Positions 23,436 through 59,621 are shown, counted from the stretch's first letter. The stretch is DNA of 64,000 bases from an uncultured Clostridia bacterium (GCA_944345705.1 CALVML010000005.1:11282-75281), one strand, 5' to 3'. Notes: generated by a model not told the origin, from the sequence alone. Numbers and translations are program-made.

Positions 23436-23526
23436 GGAGATGTACCGAAGTGGTCGTAACGGGACGCACTCGAAATGCGTTTATCGGGCAACTGATACGT
23501 GGGTTCGAATCCCACCGTCTCCGCCA
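23436..23526 (+). tRNA. tRNA-Ser (anticodon CGA), CCA encoded
   Basis: GGAGATGTACCGAAGTGGTCGTAACGGGACGCACTCGAAATGCGTTTATCGGGCAACTGATACGTGGGTTCGAATCCCACCGTCTCCGCCA. Acceptor GGAGATG/CGTCTCC, anticodon loop CT-CGA-AA, long variable arm, T-arm GTGGG-TTCGAAT-CCCAC. Confidence 0.9.
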
Positions 23527-23527
23527 A
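23508..23527 (+). repeat. attL core (3' end of tRNA-Ser)
   Basis: AATCCCACCGTCTCCGCCAA, identical to 59602-59621. Confidence 0.85.
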
Positions 23528-23585: not shown

Positions 23586-23615
23586 TTAGTCACACTTTTG
23601 CCACAAAGCATATAA
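23585..23615 (+). repeat. candidate integrase arm-type site (P' side)
   Basis: TTTAGTCACACTTTTGCCACAAAGCATATAA, an imperfect direct repeat of 59480-59510. Confidence 0.45.
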
Positions 23616-45155: not shown

Positions 45156-45456
45156 TATTGCTGTTGACTATCAGTCATCATTTTTTCCATATATTCCCTG
45201 GCGTACAGGTAGGCTTGCCACAACAGGAATGAGCACAGATTTTTATAATCCACAGGGCGAGAATTCACTTGGCTTTGACTTTTGTCGTAACAACAGACAT
45301 CAATACGGAATTGTTTTAAACGAGTATCCATCCATAAGCTATAACTTAAATGGTAGAAAGGGAAGTTATATAAATAGACATTATGGCTATTTTGACGACT
45401 TTTTTGATTCTTATGCGAGCTTGCTTGCGATTAGACTTGGAGGCACTTTGATATGA
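45142..45456 (+). CDS. head/tail completion protein (positional)
   Basis: Start set at ATG 45142 after GGCGGAG. 104 aa. Confidence 0.4.
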   Translation: MNLLDIAVDYQSSFFPYIPWRTGRLATTGMSTDFYNPQGENSLGFDFCRNNRHQYGIVLNEYPSISYNLNGRKGSYINRHYGYFDDFFDSYASLLAIRLGGTLI

Positions 45457-46370
45457 TAGAAAAATTTATTATAAATAAATTTAAAAAAATACTTGGCAAT
45501 CAGTATGAACTTTATGACAACGATTTTTTCGATAGGAATTTCACTACTATCATTCCTGTAAATGGTCAATATACTCAGCTAATAAACTATGAAGCCTTTG
45601 AAAAACACAGAGATAAAATAATTGGTGTTGTGCAAGTACAATCGGCACAATATTCGGTAACTTCATTTACTGCTTTAAATTCTACTTACTCATTAACTTT
45701 GTGGGTGCCTGTGAACTATAAGCTTGTAAATGCAAATGGTGAGTTATTGAAGCTAGACAAATTTAATGTTGATAGTGATATAAAAACCTTACGAGAAACA
45801 TTAAATAACAAAACCATTGATTTTGGTGATGGCTATAAAGGTGAAATGACTTTTAGCGAGCCAACATCTGTGGGTGGCGGACAAGAAAATAGTGGCAGTT
45901 ATAAACGCAAGATTTTGGTTGTTACAGGGAAAATAAATTTTACCACAAAAGGCTATTATGGTCGTGATTATAAGATAGAAATAGGTAGGCTTAATGATGA
46001 CGGTGAGATTGCATTTTTGCCTGTTAAGGACATTACAAGTTTAAGTTTTAATCCACAACCATCAACTATTGAAAATCACGAACAGGGCAAGATTATACCA
46101 GAGGAGTCAGTAGAAGCTGTAAAACAGGGTTGTGTATTCTCGGTTGATGATTCAAGCGAAGATGAAGAGCTGAACGATTTGTTTACTAAACTAGCTTTAA
46201 GTGGCGAGACATCAAAACAAGACTTTTGGCTTAAGATTAGTAAGCAAAAGAACGGCGTATATGTTGAACAAGTAAATTATGCAACTGTATTATCTGCAAG
46301 TCTTATGTTTCCATATGGTGACTCAGATGTTGGTTCTTTCACTGTGTCATGTACAAGAAAGGAGGAGTAA
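45453..46370 (+). CDS. putative tail tube / tail structural protein (305 aa)
   Basis: Position after the completion genes and beta-rich composition. No motif recognised. Confidence 0.4.
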   Translation: MIEKFIINKFKKILGNQYELYDNDFFDRNFTTIIPVNGQYTQLINYEAFEKHRDKIIGVVQVQSAQYSVTSFTALNSTYSLTLWVPVNYKLVNANGELLKLDKFNVDSDIKTLRETLNNKTIDFGDGYKGEMTFSEPTSVGGGQENSGSYKRKILVVTGKINFTTKGYYGRDYKIEIGRLNDDGEIAFLPVKDITSLSFNPQPSTIENHEQGKIIPEESVEAVKQGCVFSVDDSSEDEELNDLFTKLALSGETSKQDFWLKISKQKNGVYVEQVNYATVLSASLMFPYGDSDVGSFTVSCTRKEE

Positions 46371-46846
46371 TGCAGCAAAAATTTTATACTATCTCTTTTG
46401 TTGATAATACAGAAAATGGTGTTTTGAGTCAGACCAATATTCAAGAAGGAACAACATCACTGAATAGCATAGGGCAAAATAAAGGGAAGAAAAGCGGTTT
46501 TGAAGAAGCAACAGGTAAACTCATTGGACAGCTTTCAGGGCAAATGATAAGTCAAGTCTCATCTCAAATGGGATTTAACCTATCGCCTGTAGTAAGTTTA
46601 GGTAAAGCTATAATTACAGGTGCAGGTGCAGGTGCTCTAACAGGAGCAGTTCTTGGATTAGCAACTCAAGCAATTACATCTATAATATCTGGCATACAAA
46701 ATCGTATTGCCGAGCTGAGACAGGAAGCTGCAGAAGCTAATGAACGAGATAATAGTCTTGTTCTTGCAGGCAGTTTAGACCTTTATGGTTATACAATTAA
46801 AAAAGGGAAATGGGGGAGAGATGAATATGTCTATAACAGGGGTTAA
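46370..46846 (+). CDS. Gly-rich hydrophobic virion protein (158 aa; ejection/pilot-like or very short tape measure?)
   Basis: Start at TAATG after AAGGAGGAG. Central LSPVVSLGKAIITGAGAGALTGAVLGLATQAITSIISGI segment. Confidence 0.45.
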   Translation: MQQKFYTISFVDNTENGVLSQTNIQEGTTSLNSIGQNKGKKSGFEEATGKLIGQLSGQMISQVSSQMGFNLSPVVSLGKAIITGAGAGALTGAVLGLATQAITSIISGIQNRIAELRQEAAEANERDNSLVLAGSLDLYGYTIKKGKWGRDEYVYNRG

Positions 46847-49445
46847 AAATACACAAGATTGGATATGCAAATTTCAGTTTTTTGATAGAAACACAGGACA
46901 GTGGTCGAGTATGTTTGCGCCACAAATTGGTTTCGGTGAAACGTTTGTTCAAGACGAAACAACTGATGATGGAAGTTTAAATTTTAAATGGCGTAGCAGT
47001 TCAAAGCCTAATATACAACACATGCAGTGGGCAAGAATATTACATTTTCATAAGGGTGACAATATGGTGGCAACATATGACGAGAATGGACTACCAATAA
47101 ATCACAATCAATATGTTATAGGTGACTTTCAGATGGCACAAAGCAAGGATAAGTCCTATTGGCTTGTCAAACTTTCTCTACTTGAGCCGATAGAAAGAAT
47201 GCGATTTGTTGTTGGCGAAACTCTTGCCTATACCAATCAAACATCCAAGACTGTCACTGATGGCTCTGGTAATACTGTCACATATGTTAAAGATCCATAT
47301 AATCATTTAACAGCCCTTGAGAGATTTTTAAAAGTCACACCTGCGAACTGTGATAATTATGGTGAAGGTTATAATCCACATAACAATAAATCATGGTATA
47401 ATAGGATAAAGATACTTGATAAAGACTTTTTGCAAAATATACCATTTGATAGCGACTCATTTACTGAGCCAGACCTGTATACAATTTTATTCAAGTATGA
47501 CAAAAGCACAGGAAGAACACCTTGTATGTATTTCGATATGGATCCAGTTACCGATTTACCGCGAAATCTTGATAGAGATGAGTATATACTTAAATTTCTA
47601 CGCCAAGACGGATTTGATAAACCTGTTCTAAACCTATCAGACATAACCGCAAACGCACAAAATGTGACTTATAAATCAAGCCTAGCAAACTTTGCTACAG
47701 GAGTTGTTAGCAATGTTGAAAATCTTGTCACGGGGAGTAATACAGCATTTCCTTTCTACAAATTATATGCTGTACCAGAAATAAATAATAATGTAAGAAA
47801 TTTATCAAATTATAACACTGTTGATAGTGGATGGGGAATTAAATTTCCATTTCCAATAAAAAGAGTTAATAAAATTATTAGAAGGACAGCACTTTTTTGG
47901 GAAAATCTTAATTCTGTAGGTAATGGTGTCATTAGTAGAAGAATTAGTGTTGATGATATTGACTTAACAAGCAACTGTTATGAGATGCAAGAATATAATA
48001 GTTTGGATGAAGAAGAATATTCAGAAGATGAACTATTTTATTATAAAGAAGGTGACAATTTTGTTTATATTAAGAATTATTATTGTGTAAATAATCCAAA
48101 GCTTGACGAAATTATCGAACCATATTTTTACTATATAGAATACGAACCATTAATTAACCCTAAATTAGAAATTGGTGATAACGAATACTCAACTATTTTT
48201 AATCAAGTAGATAGCCAGGTGGATAGCACTAAATATAATAAATTTTTGAATCGGTATTTATTATCAATGGGGAAATCTGATTTAACTATAATTAAAAAGC
48301 ATTATCATCCAGAGGAAATGTATGAAATCGGTAGTCTAGTTTACGATGAAGAAAATAACAAAAAATATATGATAACAGGTTCTTCATATCAAAATCTGAA
48401 TTTTGAACTTCTTGCCGTTTACCAGCTTAATGAGAACCATTTTAGAAGGAATAATTCCGTTAAGGCAAATAAAGCAATAAGACAAAATGCTTCTATAGAT
48501 TATTCTAATATAAAAAACAGAAAAGTTTCTATTATAAATAATATAAATTTAAATTCTAATAGTAATAATAATTCTAAATTCAGATTTATTTTTAATTCCA
48601 TCGTGAATGATGATTTAGATATTCCACAATGTGTACTTATTAATGCTTCATCGAACCTATTGAATTCAAATAATGAAAATGTAGAAATGAACAAAAAATT
48701 TGTTTTGCCTCTACTAAGTACGGCAAATGATAATGAAATTATATTCGTGTTTTGCATTCAAGATAATGCAATGATAGGCAAAGACAAATATTTTGATGAT
48801 AAAAGTTATTCTGGTGCAGGCGGTGTAAGAAGATATTATCCTATAACAAGAATTTCCAAACAGGTTGATGTATTATATACAGATCCATTTGGTTGTATTG
48901 ATATAATGGAATTAGATCTATGTTCTAATCCACAAGATATGACCGATATTGAAATAGGAAATGATAATGTAACAGAAACTACTTTTAATATGTATCTTGA
49001 CAATTATAAAAGGCTAGCTTGTGTCACTATATCCGATGATGAAGCAAATATTTTGAAAGAAAACTCTATCATAAATTTTGGATTAAATATACTAAAAGAT
49101 TCAATTGAAAAACCAATAATATCTTATATTGTTAAATTCAATAGTGAAAATATAATATTAACCAATAAATTATTATTATCTAGTCTGAAAAAAGTAGTAT
49201 TTAGTAATTTAATTGTAAAACTTTATACTTGTAATGTTTCGATATATGATGACATAGATTATATAGCTAGTTATCAAGCAGAATGTTCTTTAATTGATAA
49301 TGGTGTAAAAATATCTTTTGCAAATGGAATTCAAAATGTTAAATCTTTAGTCTTATGGAGTGATAATGATGTGTTATTATTGGCGAAAAATGTAGATGAA
49401 GACGAAATTTATAATGGTTATTACATAATTTCACTTGACTGTTAA
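46821..49445 (+). CDS. large tail/baseplate structural protein (874 aa)
   Basis: ATG after GGGGGAGAG. Beta-rich and aromatic-rich N-terminal two thirds, then a very N/I/K-rich C-terminal third. No peptidase or lysozyme motif seen. Confidence 0.5.
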   Translation: MNMSITGVKNTQDWICKFQFFDRNTGQWSSMFAPQIGFGETFVQDETTDDGSLNFKWRSSSKPNIQHMQWARILHFHKGDNMVATYDENGLPINHNQYVIGDFQMAQSKDKSYWLVKLSLLEPIERMRFVVGETLAYTNQTSKTVTDGSGNTVTYVKDPYNHLTALERFLKVTPANCDNYGEGYNPHNNKSWYNRIKILDKDFLQNIPFDSDSFTEPDLYTILFKYDKSTGRTPCMYFDMDPVTDLPRNLDRDEYILKFLRQDGFDKPVLNLSDITANAQNVTYKSSLANFATGVVSNVENLVTGSNTAFPFYKLYAVPEINNNVRNLSNYNTVDSGWGIKFPFPIKRVNKIIRRTALFWENLNSVGNGVISRRISVDDIDLTSNCYEMQEYNSLDEEEYSEDELFYYKEGDNFVYIKNYYCVNNPKLDEIIEPYFYYIEYEPLINPKLEIGDNEYSTIFNQVDSQVDSTKYNKFLNRYLLSMGKSDLTIIKKHYHPEEMYEIGSLVYDEENNKKYMITGSSYQNLNFELLAVYQLNENHFRRNNSVKANKAIRQNASIDYSNIKNRKVSIINNINLNSNSNNNSKFRFIFNSIVNDDLDIPQCVLINASSNLLNSNNENVEMNKKFVLPLLSTANDNEIIFVFCIQDNAMIGKDKYFDDKSYSGAGGVRRYYPITRISKQVDVLYTDPFGCIDIMELDLCSNPQDMTDIEIGNDNVTETTFNMYLDNYKRLACVTISDDEANILKENSIINFGLNILKDSIEKPIISYIVKFNSENIILTNKLLLSSLKKVVFSNLIVKLYTCNVSIYDDIDYIASYQAECSLIDNGVKISFANGIQNVKSLVLWSDNDVLLLAKNVDEDEIYNGYYIISLDC

Positions 49446-49477
49446 CTTTATTTATTATAAACTTAAACAGAGGTATT

Positions 49478-49780
49478 ATGAATACAAAAAAAATAATAAT
49501 GTTAAGTTTTATTTTGATTTTCTTAATTTTAATTTTAGCAGGTCTTGGTCATGCTTTTTCGTTTATTGTACAATCATATAATAGTATTTTTTATGATTTT
49601 GGTACAGGAGAAAGCGCAAATCTTTCTGATGAGAATTTAAAACTAATTTGGAGTTGGTACGATTCTTATTATATTTTATCTATCATAGCTATTATATTAT
49701 TATCATCTTTAATAATTTTAGTTTCATATCTTTTTATTAAAGAAATAGTATATTATTATAAACAGAAGAAACTTAAATAG
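49478..49780 (+). CDS. small 2-TM membrane protein, paralog A
   Basis: MNTKKIIMLSFILIFLILILAGL...YYILSIIAIILLSSLIILVSYLF. RBS AGAGG. Confidence 0.6.
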   Translation: MNTKKIIMLSFILIFLILILAGLGHAFSFIVQSYNSIFYDFGTGESANLSDENLKLIWSWYDSYYILSIIAIILLSSLIILVSYLFIKEIVYYYKQKKLK

Positions 49781-49788
49781 AGGTGATT

Positions 49789-50088
49789 ATGAATACAAAA
49801 AAAATAGTAATATTAAGTTGTGTTTTAATTTTCTTAATATTGATTTTAGCAGGGCTTGCCTATGATTTTTCATTTATTATACAATCATATAACAATATTT
49901 TTTATGATTTTGATACCGGTGAAAGTTATACCAATTATACAGATGAGGAGTTAAAACTGTTTTGGAGTTGGTACGATTCTTATTATATTTTGTCTATCAT
50001 AAGTATTATATTACTATCAGTATTAATAATTTTAGATTTATATCTTCTAATGAAAGAAATAGTGTCTTATTGCAAGCATAAGAAATAA
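49789..50088 (+). CDS. small 2-TM membrane protein, paralog B (tandem duplicate of 49478-49780)
   Basis: About three quarters identical to paralog A by hand alignment. The duplicated unit (about 311 nt) includes the upstream ACTTAAAYAGAGGT. Confidence 0.6.
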   Translation: MNTKKIVILSCVLIFLILILAGLAYDFSFIIQSYNNIFYDFDTGESYTNYTDEELKLFWSWYDSYYILSIISIILLSVLIILDLYLLMKEIVSYCKHKK

Positions 50089-50115
50089 TTGACTACTGAA
50101 ATAAAAGTGATTGTT

Positions 50116-50667
50116 ATGAAAAAGAAGTTAACTTATTTTTTTGTAATTTCTACATCTATATTATTAATTGTTTTAATAGGGTTACTTTCCTATCACTTAG
50201 ATTACTTTGTAAAATATGAAATTGGGGGAAGTGATTTTTTGCAAATGATTTTTATTTTCATATTTTTGTTAATCGCATTTATACTATATTGTGTTATACT
50301 CTATTGTTTCATAAACAAAAGAAATGTTCCAATATTAACATTTCTAAAATTTATAATTCTAGTATTTTTATTAATTAGTTTTATTTTAACTTTGATTTAT
50401 ACTATTGATAATTATCATTTTTATTTAATTGAGGAGTCTTTGAGTTGGAATGATATATTTTTAAATAGCGAGTTAACAACTATTATGTTAACTATCTTAT
50501 TTGCATCAATCTTTTTATTTATGGCTTTTGTTTTTGTTTTAATACAAATTATTCTTGATATAAAAAACAAAAATTATCCACAAATAAACTTAGTTAAACT
50601 TCGTCAATCTCGCAAAGACAAACGCCTTAAACGTTTACAAGATAAAATAGATAAGTTAGATGAGTAG
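50116..50667 (+). CDS. 4-TM membrane protein with basic coiled-coil tail (183 aa)
   Basis: Start at ATG 50116. Four long hydrophobic segments, then KLRQSRKDKRLKRLQDKIDKLDE. Confidence 0.55.
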   Translation: MKKKLTYFFVISTSILLIVLIGLLSYHLDYFVKYEIGGSDFLQMIFIFIFLLIAFILYCVILYCFINKRNVPILTFLKFIILVFLLISFILTLIYTIDNYHFYLIEESLSWNDIFLNSELTTIMLTILFASIFLFMAFVFVLIQIILDIKNKNYPQINLVKLRQSRKDKRLKRLQDKIDKLDE

Positions 50668-50697
50668 ATTTTGTAAAATCTTATTAAATATTTTAAT

Positions 50698-50726
50698 TTG
50701 ACTATTTAATATTAAAAGGTTACAAT
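50698..50726 (+). promoter_or_regulatory. promoter of the 50733 membrane-protein gene (possibly leaderless mRNA)
   Basis: TTGACT (50698-50703), 17 nt, TACAAT (50721-50726). The ATG lies 7 nt after the -10 and there is no SD at normal spacing. Confidence 0.4.
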
Positions 50727-50732
50727 ATATAT

Positions 50733-51221
50733 ATGAAAAAGAAAAAAGCTTATTATATATACTCATTTTTTATCTGTGTATTATCAATTGTAAATATAAT
50801 CATAAACATTTCTCCTTTAAAATATGCTATATATGTTTATAATGTAGTGAGAAGAGATTATGATATTGGTCTCTATATTTATGGCATTGTTATGGCTATT
50901 AGTTTAGTTATAATTATATTAAATATAATTGGGATGTGGTTATACAAGAAAGATAAAAAGGTAAAAATTAGTATTGTTATAAGTATATTTTCTATAATAT
51001 TTCTTTTATTTATATTTATTCAAGCTATATATTTTATAAATTCCACAATAAATCTTTTGAATCAATACGAAGGTTCAACGGCTTCTCATTTATATGTACA
51101 TTATTTACAACTTGCATTCTCTGCTATATGCATTATTCTTGAGATATTTAAACTTGTCATTATATCTAAATCAGCTCGCAAGCCTAAAGAGAATGCCGTC
51201 AAGCTAGATGAGGTAAAATAA
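50733..51221 (+). CDS. 4-TM membrane protein (162 aa)
   Basis: MKKKKAYYIYSFFICVLSIVNIII... with four hydrophobic segments. Confidence 0.55.
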   Translation: MKKKKAYYIYSFFICVLSIVNIIINISPLKYAIYVYNVVRRDYDIGLYIYGIVMAISLVIIILNIIGMWLYKKDKKVKISIVISIFSIIFLLFIFIQAIYFINSTINLLNQYEGSTASHLYVHYLQLAFSAICIILEIFKLVIISKSARKPKENAVKLDEVK

Positions 51222-51302
51222 CGAATAAAGGGAAAAGTAGGTATTATTTTTTAAATATTTGCATAAAAAGTGCAAAAATCGCAAAAATAACTCTGTAAAA
51301 CA

Positions 51303-51331
51303 TTGACAATTATCATGTTTTTGTATAAAAT
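51303..51331 (+). promoter_or_regulatory. promoter of the ATPase/RloB-like cassette
   Basis: TTGACA (51303-51308), 17 nt, TAAAAT (51326-51331), with a TG two bases upstream. The ORF-track TTG start is actually this -35 box. Confidence 0.55.
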
Positions 51332-51347
51332 GATAATGGAGGTTAAA

Positions 51348-52604
51348 ATGTTAATAGATTTTAAATTTAAAAACTTTATGTCTTATAGAGATGAAACTTT
51401 ATTCACAATGGAAGCAAATGTAGATAATAGTCACGTAGACAATTTGATCCAAAATGAAAATAAAAGATATTCAAAGGTTAGGGTGATGTATGGGGCGAAT
51501 GCTTCTGGTAAATCATCATTTATAAAGGCTTTAGATTTTGTTAATCAGTTTGTATTTATTTCTAATGTTGTGCTTAATACAAATCAAATAAGAATTGTTC
51601 CATATAGATTTCGGGATAATTATCTTAATTATCCTTCAGAATTTTGTATTGATTTTGTTAAAAATGGAAAAAGATACAGGTATTCTTTTTCATGTAAAAG
51701 AGATATGGTCATCAATGAACGCCTTGATGTTTTTTATTCAGCTAAACCAACTAATATTTTTGACAGGTATGATACTGAACACTTCAAAGTAAATAAAAAT
51801 TTTATCAACATAAAAACATTAGAAGATAAACTTGACCCTTATAAATTATTTTTAACAACGGTTGCAAGTAAACAAATAGATGTTGCTAAACAAGTTGTAG
51901 AATTTTTGTTGAACGATCTATTTATTCTTCGTAGTCCAGATATAAATTTTAATTTTAAATTTATATTTGATAATAATGACTTTGAAGATTTTAAAAGGTT
52001 TTGTTTAAAGATTTTAGGGAATGCTGATATAAATATTACTGATTTTGATATAGAAGTAAAAGCTTTAAAAGATTTAGATAATGCAGATAATTTTTTAAGA
52101 CTCTATAATGAACAAACAAAATCAGAACTACTTAGAAATACAAGCATTTTTAACATAAGAACATTGCACAAGATTAAAAATGGCGATAAAGATGAAGCTT
52201 ATGAGTTAAACATGAAACAGGAATCTTTAGGAACACAGCAATTATTTAATCTAGCTCCAATTTTATATTATGTTTTTAGAAATGGTAAAACTTTAATAGT
52301 AGATGAGTTAGACAAGAGTTTGCATCCTTTACTTGTTCAGTATATTATTAAGATGTTCTTAGATAAAGATATAAATACAAAAAATGCTCAGTTAATATGT
52401 AATACTTTCGATACAAATCTACTAGATCTAGATTTGTTAAGGCGAGATGAAATATGGTTTACTGAAAAGGATTTTAAAACAGGGGTTTCTGAACTTTATT
52501 CATTATCGGACTTTTCTATTAGAAAGAATGAAAATGTGAACAAAGGATATATGCTAGGTCGATATGGAGCAATCCCTTTTATAAAAGGAGTATTCGATGT
52601 ATAG
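51348..52604 (+). CDS. ABC-type (AAA_21/AAA_15-like) ATPase of a two-gene defence-like cassette
   Basis: Start at the ATG after GGAGG. MLIDFKFKNFMSYRDE, Walker A YGANASGKSS, signature-like ESLGTQQLF, Walker B/H-loop TLIVDELDKSLHP, C-terminus RRDEIWFTEKD...GRYGAIPF. Confidence 0.8.
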   Translation: MLIDFKFKNFMSYRDETLFTMEANVDNSHVDNLIQNENKRYSKVRVMYGANASGKSSFIKALDFVNQFVFISNVVLNTNQIRIVPYRFRDNYLNYPSEFCIDFVKNGKRYRYSFSCKRDMVINERLDVFYSAKPTNIFDRYDTEHFKVNKNFINIKTLEDKLDPYKLFLTTVASKQIDVAKQVVEFLLNDLFILRSPDINFNFKFIFDNNDFEDFKRFCLKILGNADINITDFDIEVKALKDLDNADNFLRLYNEQTKSELLRNTSIFNIRTLHKIKNGDKDEAYELNMKQESLGTQQLFNLAPILYYVFRNGKTLIVDELDKSLHPLLVQYIIKMFLDKDINTKNAQLICNTFDTNLLDLDLLRRDEIWFTEKDFKTGVSELYSLSDFSIRKNENVNKGYMLGRYGAIPFIKGVFDV

Positions 52605-53214
52605 GCAACGGATAAAGAAATTTAGAAATCCAATTATATATTTAATAGTGGAAGGTAAAAATAAGACAGAGCGGAATTATTTGTCATATTTCAAAAATAA
52701 AAATAACAAATTTAAATTATATATAGTTGATAGTGTAGCAACTGACCCAGAAAGTATGATAAAAAAAGCCATAGAAGTCTATCGTAAAAATGATTTAAAT
52801 GAAATGAATGGTGATAAAGTTTTTTGTTTAATTGATTTAGATTTGTCCGCAGAAAGATATAAAAAAGTAAACATGATGCTTCAGAAGAATGTATATAAAA
52901 AGGTTAATGTAATTTTTTCAAATCCATGCTTTGAAATTTGGCTTTTGTATCATTTTACCGAGTATCCTAAACCCGAGAAATGTTCTAGTGATGTAAAAAA
53001 ACAAGTAAAAAAATATATTAAAAATTATGAAGAAAATTACGACAATTATGATATCATAGGTATTTATGAGAAATATATTACAGCAATAAATAATTCTGAC
53101 AGGAGAAATCGACTTTATATAGAGAATAATATATCTAAACATGAAAGAAATCCGTATACGGAAGTGCAAAATCTTATAGACTTATTCAATAAATACAATG
53201 AGCAGGACAAGTAG
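52597..53214 (+). CDS. RloB-like (TOPRIM-related) protein
   Basis: IIYLIVEGKNKTERNY, VFCLIDLD and FSNPCFEIWLLYHF match RloB-family hallmarks (EG..TE..YF, D.D, SNPCFE.WLLLHF). Overlaps the ATPase gene by 8 nt. Confidence 0.75.
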   Translation: MYRQRIKKFRNPIIYLIVEGKNKTERNYLSYFKNKNNKFKLYIVDSVATDPESMIKKAIEVYRKNDLNEMNGDKVFCLIDLDLSAERYKKVNMMLQKNVYKKVNVIFSNPCFEIWLLYHFTEYPKPEKCSSDVKKQVKKYIKNYEENYDNYDIIGIYEKYITAINNSDRRNRLYIENNISKHERNPYTEVQNLIDLFNKYNEQDK

Positions 53215-53226
53215 TCTTGCTTTTTT
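53202..53226 (+). terminator. intrinsic terminator closing the ATPase/RloB-like cassette
   Basis: GCAGGAC (53202-53208)-AAGTA-GTCTTGC (53214-53220, one G-U), followed by TTTTTT. Confidence 0.55.
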
Positions 53227-53242: not shown

Positions 53243-55753
53243 ATGAAAAACAATAAAGTTTTATTGTCATTCGATATGAATGGCAATTTTTTATCTATTC
53301 AAGAAGATAGCAATAAAATCTACGCAGGAAGTGTGGCGAGTGTTGAGTATTATGTCGATTTTACCGAAAACTTATCTGCAAATGATTTAGTTTATATTTC
53401 ATTTACTAGACCAGACAATCAAAAGCTTGCTCCATTAATTTGTGAGCGAATACTTGATAATAGATTTAAATTGTTATCTACGGGGGAAGAACTCGATTAT
53501 AATTTGACAACAACCGAAGAAATGACTATCAATGTTATAATTAAAACTAGAGATATTATAACTAATGTTTCAGCCATTAAATCGCAAGCAAGTGTTGTTG
53601 TTAATGTTTATCCAGGAAGTCAATTTGTTCCAGGAATAGTTGATGATAGTGTTGTAACTAATCTTGAAGAACATTTGAATGATATTGAAAAATACACAAT
53701 TAAAAAATATAATGTGAAAGACATTCAAAATGGATTAGTCTTGATACCTTATGCAGAAAACGGAATAAAAGAAGCTCCTGCAATATACATGGGTTATTCG
53801 CATTTAGTTAAATTTTATAATTGGGAATATGAAGAATATCGTTCAACAAATGTTCAAGGAAATTTATTTGTATTTGCAGAAAATGTAGATTCCAATATAA
53901 TAAAGCAATATGAGTATTTATTTACAGATAATAAAATATATGCTAGAACAGTGATTCAAGAGACAGTAACCAATGTTACAACCACCATTACAACCATCGA
54001 TGCTGGTGATTTTTATGATATTTCACTTGTCAATGATACTTTTTTGGATTATACAGATGGTAAAATTACTGAGCATAACACAAGTGGCACTGCACATTAT
54101 GATATCAGATCTCTTATTTCACAACTTACAAGCCAAGTTACTGAGAATACGAGTGATATCGCAAGCAATTCAAATAGAATTGACGCTAATGCTACTAATA
54201 TAAGCAATTTGACTATACAAGTCAATAGCAATTCTAGTTTGATTCAAGATACAAGAAACAATCTAGCAAGTAATTATTATACTAAACAGCAAACTTATAC
54301 AAAAGACGAAGTCAAGAGTTTGCTTGGAACGGCGGCAGGCTTCCAGTTTGTAATTGTAGAAGAATTGTCATTGCAGGGCGATCCAACAAAAATATATCTT
54401 GTGCCCGTATCGAAATTAACACAGTTAACCGAAAATGATCCACAAACAGAAGTAGATGATTATTATGACGAATATATTTGGCTTGCTTCTGAGAATAGGT
54501 ATGAGTGTATCGGTTCAACGCGGATCAATATAGATGACTATGTTACAAACGAAGACTTTGAAACAGCGCTAAACACCAAATCTGATACTACATATGTTGA
54601 CGAACAGCTTGATTTAAAAGCTGATGCTACAGAAGTTGATGATGTTAAAAATAATGTGAGTGGATTAGAAACGTCTATTTCAAGTTTACAGACGCAGATA
54701 AATAATAATATAGCAAATATTACCGATTTAGAGAGCAATAAACTGGATAAAAATCAAGGTGTAGCAAATGCTGGCAAGGTGATGCTTATTGGCGAAGATG
54801 GCAACTTAATTCCACAATCCCTAGCGGATGGAGGTACAACTGTAATTGTGAATGGGGAAGCACAAACCACATGGGATGCAGATACTAAAGCAAATGTGTC
54901 TTCACTTTCAGCAGTTGCAACGAGTGGCTCTTATAGTGACCTAACTGATAAACCTACTATTCCAACAGATAACACAGAACTTACAAATGGCGCGAATTAT
55001 GCTACAGTTTCACAGATCCCAACTAACAATAATCAATTAACTAACGGAGCAAATTACGCTACAAAATCAGAAGTATCATCCACTTACGCTACAAAATCAG
55101 AAGTATCATCCACTTATGCGACTAAAACTGAGTTGACAACCGAGATAAGCAATAGGACTACTGCGGATAGTAATTTGCAAGGTCAAATTAATGAAAAGGC
55201 AAATAATACAAATCCTCAGTTTTATAATACAGCTAACTTTAATCCTACCACAGGTAATACAGAAAGGGGAGTTATAATTTCTCCAGGTGCCTATACACAA
55301 CCTCGAATAACATTTGTTGGAAATTTAGGAGCACAATTATATATAACAATGGGTGAAAGTGATTATGACGGAAATTATATTTCTTGCTCATCGGAATTTC
55401 GTTCTAGTAGTATATACACTAATAGTTTATCTGTCAATGGACGTGAACCACGTCTTATATTTGACCAGGGTACAACATCAAATGGTTATTGGATTAAATA
55501 TACTGACAGTACTATGGAACAACATTTTACAGTTACTGGTTCACGGGGAGATGTAACACCACATAATTTTCTTCAAGACTTTAGGGGTATTCCTATAGTT
55601 CATAGAACAATTGATATAGATGGTAGTGGTAATGCCAGTCAATTAAGAGGATGGAATATTTCAAACTTAACAAATACCGGTTTTAATATATATACTACTG
55701 ATATTTCGGGGGCAGAAACATCTATGATTTCTGCCTATGGATATTGGCAATAA
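53243..55753 (+). CDS. tail fibre / receptor-binding protein (836 aa)
   Basis: Central N/S/T-rich coiled-coil region (TENTSDIASNSNRIDANATNISNLTIQVNSNSS), repeated ..NGANYAT.SEVSSTYATKSE.. units, and a globular C-terminus. Confidence 0.7.
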   Translation: MKNNKVLLSFDMNGNFLSIQEDSNKIYAGSVASVEYYVDFTENLSANDLVYISFTRPDNQKLAPLICERILDNRFKLLSTGEELDYNLTTTEEMTINVIIKTRDIITNVSAIKSQASVVVNVYPGSQFVPGIVDDSVVTNLEEHLNDIEKYTIKKYNVKDIQNGLVLIPYAENGIKEAPAIYMGYSHLVKFYNWEYEEYRSTNVQGNLFVFAENVDSNIIKQYEYLFTDNKIYARTVIQETVTNVTTTITTIDAGDFYDISLVNDTFLDYTDGKITEHNTSGTAHYDIRSLISQLTSQVTENTSDIASNSNRIDANATNISNLTIQVNSNSSLIQDTRNNLASNYYTKQQTYTKDEVKSLLGTAAGFQFVIVEELSLQGDPTKIYLVPVSKLTQLTENDPQTEVDDYYDEYIWLASENRYECIGSTRINIDDYVTNEDFETALNTKSDTTYVDEQLDLKADATEVDDVKNNVSGLETSISSLQTQINNNIANITDLESNKLDKNQGVANAGKVMLIGEDGNLIPQSLADGGTTVIVNGEAQTTWDADTKANVSSLSAVATSGSYSDLTDKPTIPTDNTELTNGANYATVSQIPTNNNQLTNGANYATKSEVSSTYATKSEVSSTYATKTELTTEISNRTTADSNLQGQINEKANNTNPQFYNTANFNPTTGNTERGVIISPGAYTQPRITFVGNLGAQLYITMGESDYDGNYISCSSEFRSSSIYTNSLSVNGREPRLIFDQGTTSNGYWIKYTDSTMEQHFTVTGSRGDVTPHNFLQDFRGIPIVHRTIDIDGSGNASQLRGWNISNLTNTGFNIYTTDISGAETSMISAYGYWQ
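55055..55114 (+). repeat. perfect 2 x 30-bp tandem duplication inside the fibre gene
   Basis: TACGCTACAAAATCAGAAGTATCATCCACT twice (YATKSEVSST x2), followed by a degenerate third copy. Confidence 0.9.
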
Positions 55754-55764
55754 GGAGGTAAAAA

Positions 55765-56133
55765 ATGCAATTAAATGATATTTTTTCAGAAAAATGTTAT
55801 ATAGAAGCCGTTGAGTTTGCTAATAAAAATGGTTATGTAATAACAGAAATTGAGCCAGACGAAAATGGCAGAAGATTTCAAATACAAAGTTTTATTTTAA
55901 CAAAGGAAGAAGTTCTCGATCTTCTCAGAACAAGGCGTGAAGAGGAGTGCTTTCCTATAATTAACAGAGGTTCGCTTTGGTTCGAACAACTTACTGAAGC
56001 ACAGAAAGCAGAACTAAAAACATGGTATAAATCATGGTTAGATATAACCGACAAATATGTAGATGGAATGGATTATTTATCATTAATACCTACAAAGCCT
56101 AATTGGTTAACGACAAATAGAAATTTAGAGTAG
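55765..56133 (+). CDS. hypothetical protein downstream of the fibre (XkdW-like position)
   Basis: 122 aa, RBS AAGGAGG. No motif recognised. Confidence 0.5.
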   Translation: MQLNDIFSEKCYIEAVEFANKNGYVITEIEPDENGRRFQIQSFILTKEEVLDLLRTRREEECFPIINRGSLWFEQLTEAQKAELKTWYKSWLDITDKYVDGMDYLSLIPTKPNWLTTNRNLE

Positions 56134-56144
56134 AGGAGATTATA

Positions 56145-56570
56145 ATGGAATTCAAAATTGAAAACAACAGGGGATTTTGGTCACAAAAAACTATTGTTTG
56201 TAACGAAATGATAACATTAGTACGTAACATTGACAACAAATATGAAGTATATTTGTGTTTTAAAAATGGTGATAAAAAAGCTAAAATAAAGCCAAGTTGT
56301 GCATTTGTTATTCCAAGTGAAGTATTCATAGATGGTGTTCTTGAAACTAATGTTGAAGTATTCTTTCAAGGAACTATTATTAAACGCATACCATGCGACC
56401 GACTAATTATTCAAGACACTGATAATGAACTGAAAGCAATACCTGAAGTTGAAATATTAAAAAGCACTATAAGTGAACACGGGAATACAATAAATTATCT
56501 TAACAGTAAAGTGAAAGAGCTCAGCAATAAGCTGGACTTTTTTATTAATCTTTGGAAGGAGGAATTATGA
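56145..56570 (+). CDS. hypothetical protein (141 aa) with C-terminal coiled coil
   Basis: RBS AGAGGAG. C-terminus ISEHGNTINYLNSKVKELSNKLDFFINLW. Confidence 0.5.
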   Translation: MEFKIENNRGFWSQKTIVCNEMITLVRNIDNKYEVYLCFKNGDKKAKIKPSCAFVIPSEVFIDGVLETNVEVFFQGTIIKRIPCDRLIIQDTDNELKAIPEVEILKSTISEHGNTINYLNSKVKELSNKLDFFINLWKEEL

Positions 56571-57163
56571 TGAGTTTACTTTTGCAAGCACAATGGGTAA
56601 CTGAGGCGAGCGATTTTATAACACAAAATTGGGACAAATTATTAGGCGTACTTGGTGGCACCAGTGGTATTATTGCAATCTTATTGTTTATAGGTAAGCT
56701 TATACTTGTTTGTGTTCAAGGTAGGATCGCAAGAAAGAATGGAATACCATTGCAAAAATCATTTGATACACTAAAAACTCAAGTCACATCTGTAATAAGC
56801 GAGTTTCAATTTTCTCTGCAAACAATTATAAACGAGCAAACAGAAAAGACTAAAGAAGAGTTAAAGATTTACATACAAGAACTATTAGAGAAAGCTCAAA
56901 AAATTAAGGTTGCGCTTTATGATAAACTAATAACGGAAGGGGAAAGTGCTCAGGAGTTATTGAATGAATTAAACACAAAAATTGAAGAAGCTCAGTCTGT
57001 GCTAGAAGATAACAAAAATGAACTTGAAATTGAGCCTGTAATCGAAGAAACGCAAGAAGTTGAACAAGTGTCAATAGAAGAGGAAAAAGAGCTAGAAATG
57101 CAAGTACAGCCGGCTACAAAAGCTAAAAAAGTTAAGAAAGCAAGGCGAGTGATAGTGGAGTAA
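56567..57163 (+). CDS. single-TM protein with long acidic coiled coil (holin-like/XhlA-like position)
   Basis: ATGA-coupled start after GGAAGGAGG. TM segment LLGVLGGTSGIIAILLFIGKLILVCV. Confidence 0.5.
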   Translation: MMSLLLQAQWVTEASDFITQNWDKLLGVLGGTSGIIAILLFIGKLILVCVQGRIARKNGIPLQKSFDTLKTQVTSVISEFQFSLQTIINEQTEKTKEELKIYIQELLEKAQKIKVALYDKLITEGESAQELLNELNTKIEEAQSVLEDNKNELEIEPVIEETQEVEQVSIEEEKELEMQVQPATKAKKVKKARRVIVE

Positions 57164-57167
57164 CGCA

Positions 57168-57689
57168 ATGAAAGAAAAGAATTGGAAGTTAACTCTGTTT
57201 ACATGGTTATACAGAGTTTTTTGTTATCTTGTACCAAGTGGCTACGCTCTATATGCTTTTTTAATCAATACACTCATAAGCGAACAAACAAGCATCTGGG
57301 ATAAGGTTCGTTGCAGTGCAATTTTTGTTGTAGCTATAATTGTGATAATAGCTATTTTCTTTTATGGCAGGCATTTAAAGAAAAAAATAAATGACATTAC
57401 AAATCAATGTATTGAATGTATAGATAACTCACTTAAAGCTGATCTTGTTGCAATGAAAAAGAAATGGGAGGCAAAACAAGAAATGTTTCGTAATGCCTGT
57501 TTTGTTGCACCATTTATAATTGCTTGGTTTATAGTTTCAATGATTGAGAAACAAGTTGTATCACTTCGTGGTATGCTCATGATTGTTTCAATATCAATGT
57601 GTGCTGGTTTAGGATTTAATGGCGTAGCTCAATGGATAAAGGCTAAAAGTGGGGTAAAAGCAAATGAATCTAAAGAACAAGATAAATAG
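57168..57689 (+). CDS. 4-TM membrane protein (173 aa)
   Basis: Hydrophobic segments FCYLVPSGYALYAFLINTLI, AIFVVAIIVIIAIFFY, ACFVAPFIIAWFIVSMI, MLMIVSISMCAGLGF. Confidence 0.55.
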   Translation: MKEKNWKLTLFTWLYRVFCYLVPSGYALYAFLINTLISEQTSIWDKVRCSAIFVVAIIVIIAIFFYGRHLKKKINDITNQCIECIDNSLKADLVAMKKKWEAKQEMFRNACFVAPFIIAWFIVSMIEKQVVSLRGMLMIVSISMCAGLGFNGVAQWIKAKSGVKANESKEQDK

Positions 57690-58689
57690 TATAAATAAAA
57701 AAGATTTACTGCGAGGTATATCAGGTACACTAATTATCATCTTAGTGTTAATAGCTAATGGTTTTATGTCGTTTATCACTGTGGGTTTTGCTTTCGAGAA
57801 AATTCTTACTGCATCATATTGGGCAAGTTTTTCCATATTACTTGCTTCTGAGTTATCTGTTCTTTTTGGTATGTATCTTATACAAAAGGGTCGTGATTTA
57901 AAGAAAAAGAAAATTACAGATATACAGGATGAAATAGACAAACAGCGTAGAACTATATATGACTTAGATAAGGTGGCTGAAGCTGAAAACTGGCTAAAGG
58001 ATGTTTATAATTATCAAATTAAACTCGATTTATATGAAGATAAAATTAAATCAATATACGAATCATTGCGCGTTAAAGAACCACAAAAAGAAGACAAAAA
58101 TTATAACAAGAAAAAAATAAAATATGACAAAATAATGGCACAAAAGACGCAACTTCTAGAACAACTTGATTTTATAAAAAAAGACCGAAAACGTTTAAAC
58201 TTGATTATAAATAAAAGTGATACACATGAGATTGCAGAACTTAATGAGACGCTCAATACTGACAAATATAAATTTCGAACAGCCAAAATACATTATAAGC
58301 CTATTTATTGGGGAAACTTATTGTCCGATGTAGAAGAAACTAAAACTAAACCGGTGTCTGCTTTTTTCGATGAAAAGATTGAGCTTACAAAAAGTGTCTC
58401 AAAATACATTGCGACAGGTCTTTTATCGGCTGGATTTGTTTCTTGTTTAATATTTCCGACTTTTAATTCTCTTGGATGGAATACTGTTCTTAGCCTTCTT
58501 GTCAATCTAGTAACATTGATTGTCTTTATGATTAAAGGTATTGGATTATCAAATAAAATCATACTTGGTAAATATTATAAAGCTCTTGAAAGTCGTAAGT
58601 CAATTTATACCAAAATGCTAAAAGATTTAGGTGTTTCAAAGATTGTAATTGAAGACGAGGATGTCAATGAAACTGAAAACTTGGGTTAA
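57664..58689 (+). CDS. membrane protein with 2+2 TM segments flanking a long coiled coil (341 aa)
   Basis: An N-terminal TM pair, about 170 aa of K/E-rich coiled coil, then a C-terminal TM pair. Confidence 0.55.
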   Translation: MNLKNKINSINKKDLLRGISGTLIIILVLIANGFMSFITVGFAFEKILTASYWASFSILLASELSVLFGMYLIQKGRDLKKKKITDIQDEIDKQRRTIYDLDKVAEAENWLKDVYNYQIKLDLYEDKIKSIYESLRVKEPQKEDKNYNKKKIKYDKIMAQKTQLLEQLDFIKKDRKRLNLIINKSDTHEIAELNETLNTDKYKFRTAKIHYKPIYWGNLLSDVEETKTKPVSAFFDEKIELTKSVSKYIATGLLSAGFVSCLIFPTFNSLGWNTVLSLLVNLVTLIVFMIKGIGLSNKIILGKYYKALESRKSIYTKMLKDLGVSKIVIEDEDVNETENLG

Positions 58690-59368
58690 GAGGGTTATTC
58701 TTATTTTATGCATAGTATTAATTTCAGCGTTATCATGGATAACACTTAATAATTTAGGAATAACTTCTATAGAAGGATTAAGAAAACTTATTTCATCTTG
58801 TGGGAGTTGGAGCTTGGTAGTATTTGTATTATTGCAAGTATTAGTGACAACATTATTATGCTTTGTTCCTGCTACAAGTATGACTTTCATTATAGTATCA
58901 ATTATTTTATTTGGTGCATGGAAAGGATTTTTAATCTCTTTGGCTGGTGTAATCTTATCAAGCATGGCAATGTTTTTGATAGGTAGATTTGGTGGAGAGA
59001 AAATAGCTGTCAAAATGGTAGGTGAAGAAACTCTAAAGAAAGCGCAAGACTTGATTGCTGTTAAATCAAAAATATACTTACCAATAATGTTCTTATTTCC
59101 ATTTTTCCCAGATGATGCACTTTGTATGGTGGCAGGTATAACAAAAATGCGTTGGTGGGAATTTCTACTGATAGTTGTATGTTGCCGAACCGTTGGTGTG
59201 GCTATGACTTGCTTTTTAGGAAGTAACCTAATCAATTGGTCTAATCTTACGATAATTGACTGGTTTGTGTTCATTTCGGTATGCTTAATAGACTTATATA
59301 TTATTTATAGACTTGCGGATAAATTAGAAAAGAAAATAAGAGAGAAGAAAGATAAAGGGAAAGAGTAA
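58667..59368 (+). CDS. TVP38/TMEM64 (DedA/VTT-domain) family membrane protein
   Basis: FVPATSMTFIIVSIILFGAWKGFLISLAGVILSSMAMFLIGRFGGEKI and FPFFPDDALCMVAGITKM resemble the VTT-domain core. The start is chosen 6 nt after GAGG. Confidence 0.6.
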   Translation: MKLKTWVKRVILILCIVLISALSWITLNNLGITSIEGLRKLISSCGSWSLVVFVLLQVLVTTLLCFVPATSMTFIIVSIILFGAWKGFLISLAGVILSSMAMFLIGRFGGEKIAVKMVGEETLKKAQDLIAVKSKIYLPIMFLFPFFPDDALCMVAGITKMRWWEFLLIVVCCRTVGVAMTCFLGSNLINWSNLTIIDWFVFISVCLIDLYIIYRLADKLEKKIREKKDKGKE

Positions 59369-59386
59369 AATCTTTCCCTTATTTTT
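59357..59386 (+). terminator. intrinsic terminator after the last prophage gene
   Basis: GGGAAAGA (59357-59364)-GTAAAA-TCTTTCCC (59371-59378), then TTATTTTT. Confidence 0.7.
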
Positions 59387-59479: not shown

Positions 59480-59510
59480 TTTAGTCACATTTTTAGGCAC
59501 AAAAATATAA
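59480..59510 (+). repeat. candidate integrase arm-type site (P side)
   Basis: TTTAGTCACATTTTTAGGCACAAAAATATAA, an imperfect direct repeat of 23585-23615. Confidence 0.45.
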
Positions 59511-59601: not shown

Positions 59602-59621
59602 AATCCCACCGTCTCCGCCAA
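59602..59621 (+). repeat. attR core (displaced copy of the tRNA-Ser 3' end)
   Basis: AATCCCACCGTCTCCGCCAA, identical to 23508-23527. There is no tRNA body upstream of it. Confidence 0.85.

Follow-up and report, generated by a model that had tools for sequence, protein, structure and literature searches.

How a tailed phage may leave a walled bacterium when its genome holds no recognisable endolysin is the question raised by the right arm of a prophage from an uncultured Clostridia bacterium. The window analysed in this work is a stretch of 64,000 nucleotides (nt) of this organism (GCA_944345705.1 CALVML010000005.1:11282-75281; positions are counted from its first letter), 36.1 kb of which are occupied by the prophage, integrated into tRNA-Ser(cga). 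Downstream of the tail fibre gene, between positions 55,765 and 59,386, the right arm consists of a run of genes coding for soluble and membrane proteins. The holin-endolysin pair is regarded as a universal feature of those tailed phages whose hosts are walled; the data reported here reveal, in a phage lineage in which no endolysin is recognisable, a cassette that occupies the lysis slot and belongs to an undescribed family. By analogy with multi-gene lysis cassettes of Firmicute phages, we tentatively propose that this cassette may represent the membrane-lesion and lysis-timing (holin-type) module of the phage group, muralysis being provided either by host hydrolases or by an unrecognised enzyme.

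Organization of the late-operon end

The genes involved are listed below, all of them on the plus strand (aa, amino acids; ORF, open reading frame; TM, transmembrane):

53243-55753, plus strand: tail fibre, 836 aa (ORF; phrog_24103 at 4e-17, plus a weak minor-tail PHROG)
55765-56133, plus strand: soluble protein of 122 aa (ORF, no TM segment)
56145-56570, plus strand: core gene 1, soluble protein of 141 aa (ORF, no TM segment)
56552-57163, plus strand: core gene 2, protein of 203 aa with 1 TM segment (ORF; 198 aa if the start is the ATG at 56567)
57168-57689, plus strand: core gene 3, protein of 173 aa with 4 TM segments (ORF)
57664-58689, plus strand: core gene 4, protein of 341 aa with 2+2 TM segments (ORF)
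58649-59368, plus strand: VTT/DedA protein, 239 aa, 6 TM segments (Pfam VTT_dom; translation more likely begins with the ATG at 58667)
59355-59380, plus strand: intrinsic terminator (stem of 10 bp, 4 of them GC pairs, then a T-run)

From the fibre through the VTT gene, the spacings are, in order, 11, 11, -19, 4, -26, and -41 nt, the first being the distance between the fibre stop codon and the start of the cassette; the VTT gene overlaps the 341-aa gene and uses the operon terminator. Because of these tight or overlapping spacings and of the shared terminator, the genes from the fibre to the VTT gene can be considered the end of a single, translationally coupled late operon. An earlier note, made from this DNA without database searches, had described the same gene order and TM anatomy, with a VTT-type gene in the last position followed by a terminator and by attR. 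The ORFs and their hydrophobic segments agree with the first part of that description, and the Pfam VTT_dom match, the terminator (59355-59380), and the right attachment site (59602-59621) with the second.

Search for an endolysin in the prophage

An ORF was regarded as coding for a lysin if it harboured a catalytic domain of Amidase_2, Amidase_3, Amidase_5, GH25, GH24, CHAP, NlpC/P60, M23, M15, SLT, or glucosaminidase. The Pfam scan included all the late ORFs and 24 early ORFs of the prophage, the PHROGs scan 38 prophage ORFs, and the NCBIfam scan ten ORFs. None of the three libraries retrieved a muralytic family from the scanned ORFs, so that none of them can be assigned to the endolysins; the sole match in the PHROG lysis category, phrog_5871 on the VTT protein, is at chance level (E 0.062). 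The six-frame hidden Markov model (HMM) searches covered the whole 1.28-Mb assembly, so that pseudogenes were also detectable. Genome-wide, they gave no matches for Amidase_2, GH25, and NlpC/P60, two for Amidase_3 (contigs C12 and C13), and one for M23 (contig C4), and none of these five families was found on the prophage contig (C5). Sequence searches of the PDB with the 122-aa protein, a 305-aa protein, the fibre, and the profiles A2, A3, and A4 gave nothing meaningful, and a literature search on lysin-less phages and phage-borne DedA proteins retrieved nothing specific. The three HMM libraries and the six-frame searches are thus in agreement with the statement of the earlier note that no endolysin is recognisable.

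One explanation of these data, which we regard as doubtful, is that the prophage does encode an endolysin, of an unrecognised or strongly diverged fold, and that the membrane cassette is its holin or regulator part. The candidates would be the 122-aa protein, the baseplate hub (in its C-terminal third), the fibre, or an unknown early ORF; if carried by the virion, one enzyme could be used for entry as well as for exit. Many ORFs of the phage group belong to no family; moreover, the wall has to be crossed during entry too, and no hydrolase was detected among the virion proteins, so that a gap in the coverage of the libraries is plausible. Against this explanation stand the empty results of the three HMM libraries, of the six-frame HMM searches, and of the PDB sequence searches, together with what the single candidates look like.

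The 122-aa protein separates the fibre from the core genes and occupies a variable slot that is not conserved in the group; its homologues (45-52% identity) occur only in the related loci L019, L018, and L016, and it has no match in Pfam, PHROGs, NCBIfam, or the PDB. The 141-aa family (alignment A3, 8 homologues) is composed of a soluble beta-rich domain followed by a C-terminal coiled coil, and its profile matched trimeric coiled coils alone in the PDB. Since some of its homologues contain neither Cys nor His, the 141-aa protein is not an obvious enzyme. The fibre, whose N-terminal part is 83% identical to that of the L016 fibre, has no lysin match in Pfam or in the PDB.

The largest of the candidates is the following:

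46785-49445, plus strand: baseplate hub of the gp27 / Mu gp44 / VgrG type, 886 aa (AlphaFold2, AF2, and Foldseek)

AF2 models were made for two proteins, the 341-aa and the 886-aa ones. The hub model, built with 44 homologues, has a predicted local distance difference test (pLDDT) score of 77.2. The Foldseek comparison with the PDB gave 30 matches at E<=1e-3, every one of them a hub or spike protein, among which the HFTV1 tail (1.1e-9), the diffocin hub, the MuSo2 43-kDa protein, VgrG, and T4 gp27. The assignment to the hub fold relies on a Foldseek probability of 1.00, on E values from 1.1e-9 to 1e-3, and on a template modelling score (TM-score, target-normalised) of up to 0.5. No lysin fold appears among the best 50 fold matches, and Pfam domains are lacking both in the hub and in all 47 homologues. 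A lysin hidden within the 886-aa protein was therefore rejected, the model giving the hub fold alone.

The identification of the hub implies a tail tip of the long-tailed-phage type. Despite this, the prophage has no long tape-measure gene (region 45453-46370, 46349-46846, 46785-49445). Just upstream of the hub gene lies a gene for a Gly-rich protein of 165 aa with one hydrophobic segment, which could be a miniature tape measure; this, in turn, would imply a very short tail.

Presence and organization of the module in related loci

The close relatives that we read are L011, L012/L013, L014/L015, L016, L017, L018, L019, and L020 (metagenome-assembled genome, MAG), plus L031 and L032 (IMG/VR). 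According to the precomputed Pfam lists and to the reading of the neighbourhoods, none of the 14 related loci harbours a recognisable lysin; nor was a holin-lysin pair, whose occurrence in relatives the earlier note had contemplated, seen at this position in any of them.

The four core genes follow one another, directly after fibre or leucine-rich repeat (LRR)-type receptor-binding genes, in L012, L014, L016-L020, L031, and L032, whereas the L011 contig begins inside the module, leaving the last two core genes and the VTT gene visible. Across the relatives the proteins measure about 141-149 aa (beta-rich domain plus coiled coil), 162-204 aa (1-TM), 156-174 aa (4-TM), and 332-347 aa (2+2-TM). 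Both IMG/VR genomes, L031 and L032, show the succession fibre, 141, 199, 168, 340, VTT, and then an integrase on the opposite strand, as expected if the layout of the window prophage is circularised.

Three more distant relatives, reached through the hub protein (L021, L022, and L023, on contigs of roughly 23-36 kb), show no lysin either; L022 possesses a strongly diverged four-gene module, L021 and L023 other TM/coiled-coil proteins in its place. Diverged pairs of the 4-TM and 2+2-TM genes were also found in L024, L026, and L027, without a recognisable lysin. In L009/L025, a diverged module forms a small island amid housekeeping genes of another genome of the same order. The copy in L025 (G055:C36, 6376-11474) is not accompanied by other phage genes: a 269-aa protein and an LRR_5 protein precede it and a NYN/OST-HTH protein follows it, and the island represents either what is left of a prophage or a unit that has been domesticated.

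Two further genes recur downstream of the membrane genes in the non-integrated relatives L012, L014, and L021-L023. The first codes for a conserved protein of 120-149 aa, mostly with an N/Q/Y-rich low-complexity N-terminus, the second for a Met/Gly/Asn/Pro-rich protein of 78-89 aa. Neither belongs to any family, and neither was found in the window prophage by tblastn (E 1e-4).

The DNA of the right arm matched no phage of GenBank, and tblastn retrieved nothing for the 341-, 173-, and 886-aa proteins or for two distant family members. From IMG/VR, the A2 profile retrieved two loci, whereas a single-protein scan and an alignment of distant members retrieved none. Taken together, the integrated copies in MAGs, the IMG/VR genomes, and the phage-sized contigs from many samples depict a coherent and apparently active phage group.

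The host and its cell wall

The host is a gut Clostridia bacterium with a tiny genome: the assembly is 1.28 Mb long, has a GC content of about 30%, and is 98.85% complete. It encodes two transpeptidase penicillin-binding proteins (PBPs), four Mur ligases, MraY, and FtsW/SpoVE, all with open frames; MraY, FtsW/SpoVE, and one Mur ligase are clustered on contig C6. The host is walled. The check for mur, pbp, and sortase genes that the earlier note had called for thus yielded mur and PBP genes and no sortase.

These genes refute the idea, put forward in the earlier note, of a wall-less, Mollicutes-like host in which membrane disruption would be sufficient for lysis, an idea to which we can give almost no credit. 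The small, GC-poor genome would fit it, as would the lack of any sortase in the host genome and the giant surface protein (2888 aa), which is anchored by a C-terminal TM helix and has no LPxTG, exactly as the note had described. However, the absence of sortase and a TM-anchored surface protein do not imply the absence of a wall, and the peptidoglycan genes have open frames in an almost complete genome. In addition, the same cassette was found in one genome alone among the GTDB representatives, and this relative is a MAG titled uncultured Clostridia bacterium.

The set of wall hydrolases of the host is small, with two Amidase_3 proteins (one of which is CwlD-like) and one M23 protein. A stand-alone host gene on the minus strand of contig C12 (C12:26573-27604) codes for an Amidase_3 domain plus two PG_binding_1 domains. 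Its product has neither a signal peptide nor a TM segment, the gene is flanked by host genes only, and the architecture is that of an endolysin-like or mother-cell-lysin (CwlC-like) protein.

The membrane proteins of the core module

The 203-aa protein has its TM segment near the N-terminus (residues 37-55), followed by a coiled-coil/acidic region and by a basic tail. Homologues with 25-83% identity are present in L016, L017, L014, L019, and L012, and weak coiled-coil matches are all that Pfam gives.

In the 173-aa protein, 2+2 TM segments surround a basic helix; three of the hydrophobic segments are strong and the N-terminal one is weaker, the total being counted as four. The protein is 47-86% identical across seven related loci, its alignment (A9) has 37 invariant columns, and no family matching it was found in Pfam, PHROGs, NCBIfam, or PADLOC.

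The 341-aa protein exhibits two TM pairs separated by a long helical hairpin. Its family comprises 49 homologous clusters with 45-99% identity, many of them on contigs of 30-38 kb, none of which has a Pfam domain; among 1.84 billion representative proteins, its profile retrieved only 65 relatives. The alignment (A2) has 39 invariant columns, and among the polar residues of the TM helices N32 and S62 are invariant and E63 nearly so. The AF2 model (pLDDT 77.9) consists of helices throughout, and the long hairpin that separates the TM pairs is predicted with very high confidence. No PDB match was obtained by sequence or by fold, and the comparison with BFVD returned uncharacterised viral proteins of 293-307 aa and nothing else. 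For these reasons, an enzyme or a known fold was rejected for the 341-aa protein. The possibility that the 173-aa and 341-aa proteins are paralogues was rejected as well (hhalign probability 0.2%).

These two proteins are encoded by the best-conserved genes of those compared in the group, with 47-86% identity versus 33-39% for the single-stranded DNA-binding protein (SSB) and 34-42% for the hub. The ratio of nonsynonymous to synonymous substitutions (dN/dS), calculated against L016, is 0.04-0.10 for the cassette genes (141-aa, 0.10; 203-aa, 0.10; 173-aa, 0.06; VTT, 0.04); purifying selection thus acts on each of the five. According to the positive-inside rule, nearly all the soluble mass of the 203-, 173-, and 341-aa proteins is predicted to be cytoplasmic; because of this predicted location, the three proteins cannot be wall hydrolases. 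Their TM segments and charged tails, encoded in a late operon, are holin-like, yet the proteins are oversized for holins.

The VTT gene and its variable slot

The last gene of the operon belongs to the VTT superfamily, on the basis of a VTT_dom match (PF09335) above the gathering score (E 3.1e-20, 73.3 bits versus a cut-off of 33.9, residues 77-192) and of six hydrophobic segments; phrog_15996 also matches it at 2e-20. A VTT gene is present in seven loci (the window, L011, L016, L017, L020, L031, and L032). In L012, L014, L018, and L019, the same slot is filled by unrelated polytopic proteins in three cases and is empty in one. Since this last slot varies, VTT is dispensable for the phage group. 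Homologues with 55-86% identity, named TVP38/TMEM64 or VTT-domain proteins in their sources, lie on many phage-sized contigs, whereas the VTT paralogue of the host (contig C4) is only 30% identical to the phage protein and has the same VTT_dom score. This sequence pattern indicates that the VTT gene is a recurrent yet dispensable accessory of the phage group, rather than part of the module core or a recent acquisition from the host.

The slot proteins following the 2+2-TM gene in the VTT-less relatives (L018:4509-5072, L012:11702-12235, and L014:11761-12300) are polytopic, and the idea that they are hidden VTT proteins was rejected, no Pfam VTT match being found. One of these slot proteins is followed by a membrane protein of 187 aa with a borderline AgrB match (6e-5, 22.9 bits versus a cut-off of 23), and the L012 and L014 counterparts have, as judged by eye, TM segments and a helix-turn-helix (HTH)-like C-terminus. 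The gene with the AgrB-like match may be a phage-borne gene for peptide-signal processing or a regulator.

In L017 (10652-11761 of an 11.8-kb contig), VTT is directly followed by repressor and cro-like genes, 91-92% identical to those of the window, and an integrase gene is missing from this interval, owing either to a different integrase module or to an incomplete assembly.

A possible role of the cassette in lysis

The module was read as a lysis device because its position, its coupling to the late genes, and its composition parallel those of the multi-gene lysis cassettes of Firmicute phages, in which holin and endolysin normally take this place. The lysis role is what we infer from position and anatomy only, and the same caution applies to the topology, to the formation of a complex, and to the source of the muralytic activity. 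In the scheme that we propose, the 173-aa and 341-aa proteins would form a coupled core complex, and the membrane machinery made up of the 203-, 173-, and 341-aa proteins would open or depolarise the membrane, thereby timing lysis. Since the host is walled and no phage hydrolase is recognisable, wall breakdown must come from host hydrolases or from an unrecognised enzyme. In the first case, the host hydrolases would be freed or activated after de-energisation of the membrane, a candidate being the amidase encoded at C12:26573-27604; in the second, the phage would supply an enzyme of unrecognised fold.

The earlier note had suggested a peptidoglycan-independent lysis module or a lysogenic-conversion module. 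The lysis role is plausible, but not in a peptidoglycan-independent sense, the host being walled. A part in lysogenic conversion is improbable as far as the four core genes are concerned, because they are located in the late operon, have no promoter of their own, and are present in relatives showing no integrase; VTT alone could still serve it.

Three observations weigh against the holin-type reading. No holin family of Pfam or PHROGs matches the 203-, 173-, or 341-aa proteins, and an adjoining endolysin, which would mark a holin gene, is seen neither in the window nor in the 14 related loci. Holins are usually small and fast-evolving, whereas the membrane proteins of the cassette are large and the best conserved of the group. 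The C12 amidase, finally, is present in 10 of the 24 other genomes of the genus (69-79% identity), and for this reason it cannot be a universal lysis partner.

Size and conservation fit better with a specific contact with a conserved host machine, which leaves room for an amurin-like or a non-lysis role. The former is one version of a scenario that we judge rather unlikely, namely a lineage of tailed dsDNA phages that has given up its endolysin, in which the complex of the 203-, 173-, and 341-aa proteins, joined by VTT in some members, would kill and permeabilise the cell, and the wall would fail through released or activated host hydrolases (for example, the C12 amidase) or through a block of its synthesis. 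The phage VTT protein would then act on membrane lipids or on the undecaprenyl-phosphate carrier.

It is similarly improbable, in our opinion, that the cassette is unrelated to lysis, which something else would perform, and acts, for example, in superinfection block, in the manipulation of a host envelope machine, or as an assembly anchor. A conservation unlike that of known holins and the predicted cytoplasmic location of the soluble mass would be compatible with such functions, as would the occurrence of diverged pairs away from fibre genes, namely beside repressor/antirepressor genes (L026) and beside the gene of a 2037-aa protein (L024). Nevertheless, the module lies at the late-operon end in all the close relatives, where no other lysis candidate is present, and it has neither a promoter nor a terminator of its own; therefore, it is not arranged as a gene expressed during lysogeny. 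We thus retain the holin-type module as our preferred, albeit tentative, reading.

Prophage ends and neighbouring genes

The left and right ends of the prophage are defined by the following features:

23436-23526: tRNA-Ser(cga), whose 3' end is overlapped by attL
23508-23527: attL core, AATCCCACCGTCTCCGCCAA
59602-59621: attR core, an exact 20-bp repeat of attL, AATCCCACCGTCTCCGCCAA

In the window, AATCCCACCGTCTCCGCCAA occurs at 23508 and at 59602 and nowhere else. Just inside each prophage end (23587-23610 and 59482-59505) there is a related motif of 24 nt, TAGTCACA(C/T)TTTT..CACAAA; this pair probably represents arm-type binding sites of the integrase.

The state of these ends bears on the possibility, raised in the earlier note, of a defective prophage from which the lysin has been lost. 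The lack of a lysin is commonly taken as a sign of a defective prophage, for example in surveys of pneumococcal prophages (PMC8637289). On the other hand, the att sites are perfect, and the integrase, the S24 repressor, the terminase, the portal, the capsid, and the tail genes are intact. In addition, the lysin-less layout is common to all the related loci, including the phage-sized contigs of 30-39 kb and the two IMG/VR genomes, and the cassette is under purifying selection. The hypothesis is not supported by these data, and we consider it very improbable.

Between the hub and fibre genes lies an island of low GC content (49446-53226; 0.24 versus 0.34 in the late region), which encodes four small multi-TM proteins and, besides two of these that are about 75% identical and derive from a recent duplication in tandem, the AbiLi/AbiLii defence pair (PADLOC, 7.1e-89 and 2.2e-23). 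The GC content of the cassette (0.30-0.35) is like that of the late region, as opposed to the 0.24 of this AbiL island.

Comparison with known lysis systems

The significance of the cassette depends on where the muralytic activity comes from. If an enzyme is hidden in the phage, it would represent a new endolysin fold, useful for enzybiotic work and for the scoring of prophage completeness; if there is none, the phage would have an endolysin-free exit, through host enzymes or through inhibition of wall synthesis. In either case, a phage-borne DedA/VTT lineage located in a late operon is brought to notice.

The multi-gene lysis cassettes of Firmicutes include xepA-xhlA-xhlB-xlyA of PBSX and gp24.1-gp25-gp26 of SPP1. 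The similarity with the cassette described here concerns the position at the late-operon end after the fibre, the coupling of the genes, and the succession of a soluble beta-rich protein, a 1-TM coiled-coil protein, and multi-TM proteins with charged tails. Unlike PBSX and SPP1, our phage has no muralytic gene in the cassette, and its membrane proteins are larger (173 and 341 aa), highly conserved, and outside the holin families. No sequence link to XepA, XhlA, or XhlB was found, the profile search of the PDB giving coiled coils alone.

Amurins, such as E of phiX174, A2 of Qbeta, and LysM of phage M, are single-gene lysis proteins of small ssDNA/ssRNA phages. Their hosts are walled and yet are lysed with no muralytic enzyme involved, and the conservation of the 173- and 341-aa proteins would fit, speculatively, the binding of a conserved envelope enzyme. 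However, amurins are single small proteins of tiny phages and share no homology with the cassette. Acholeplasma phage L2, a lysin-less phage of wall-less Mollicutes, shares with our prophage the absence of an endolysin, but the host studied here has a complete-looking peptidoglycan pathway.

The DedA/VTT family includes YdjX of E. coli; DedA members have been proposed to be undecaprenyl-phosphate flippases, and the eukaryotic members VMP1 and TMEM41B are scramblases. The last gene of the cassette resembles them in its VTT domain and six TM segments. It differs from the other members in being phage-borne and part of a late operon.

Lastly, a comparison can be drawn with the pneumococcal phage SV1. 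The loss of proton-motive force driven by holins activates autolysins, and LytA contributes to the release of SV1 progeny (PMC6116005, which also gives general background on phage lysis). SV1 keeps its own lysin, with LytA assisting, whereas no phage lysin is detectable here; likewise, though, a depolarising function of our phage could unleash a host hydrolase, and the host possesses a protein combining Amidase_3 and PG_binding_1 domains.

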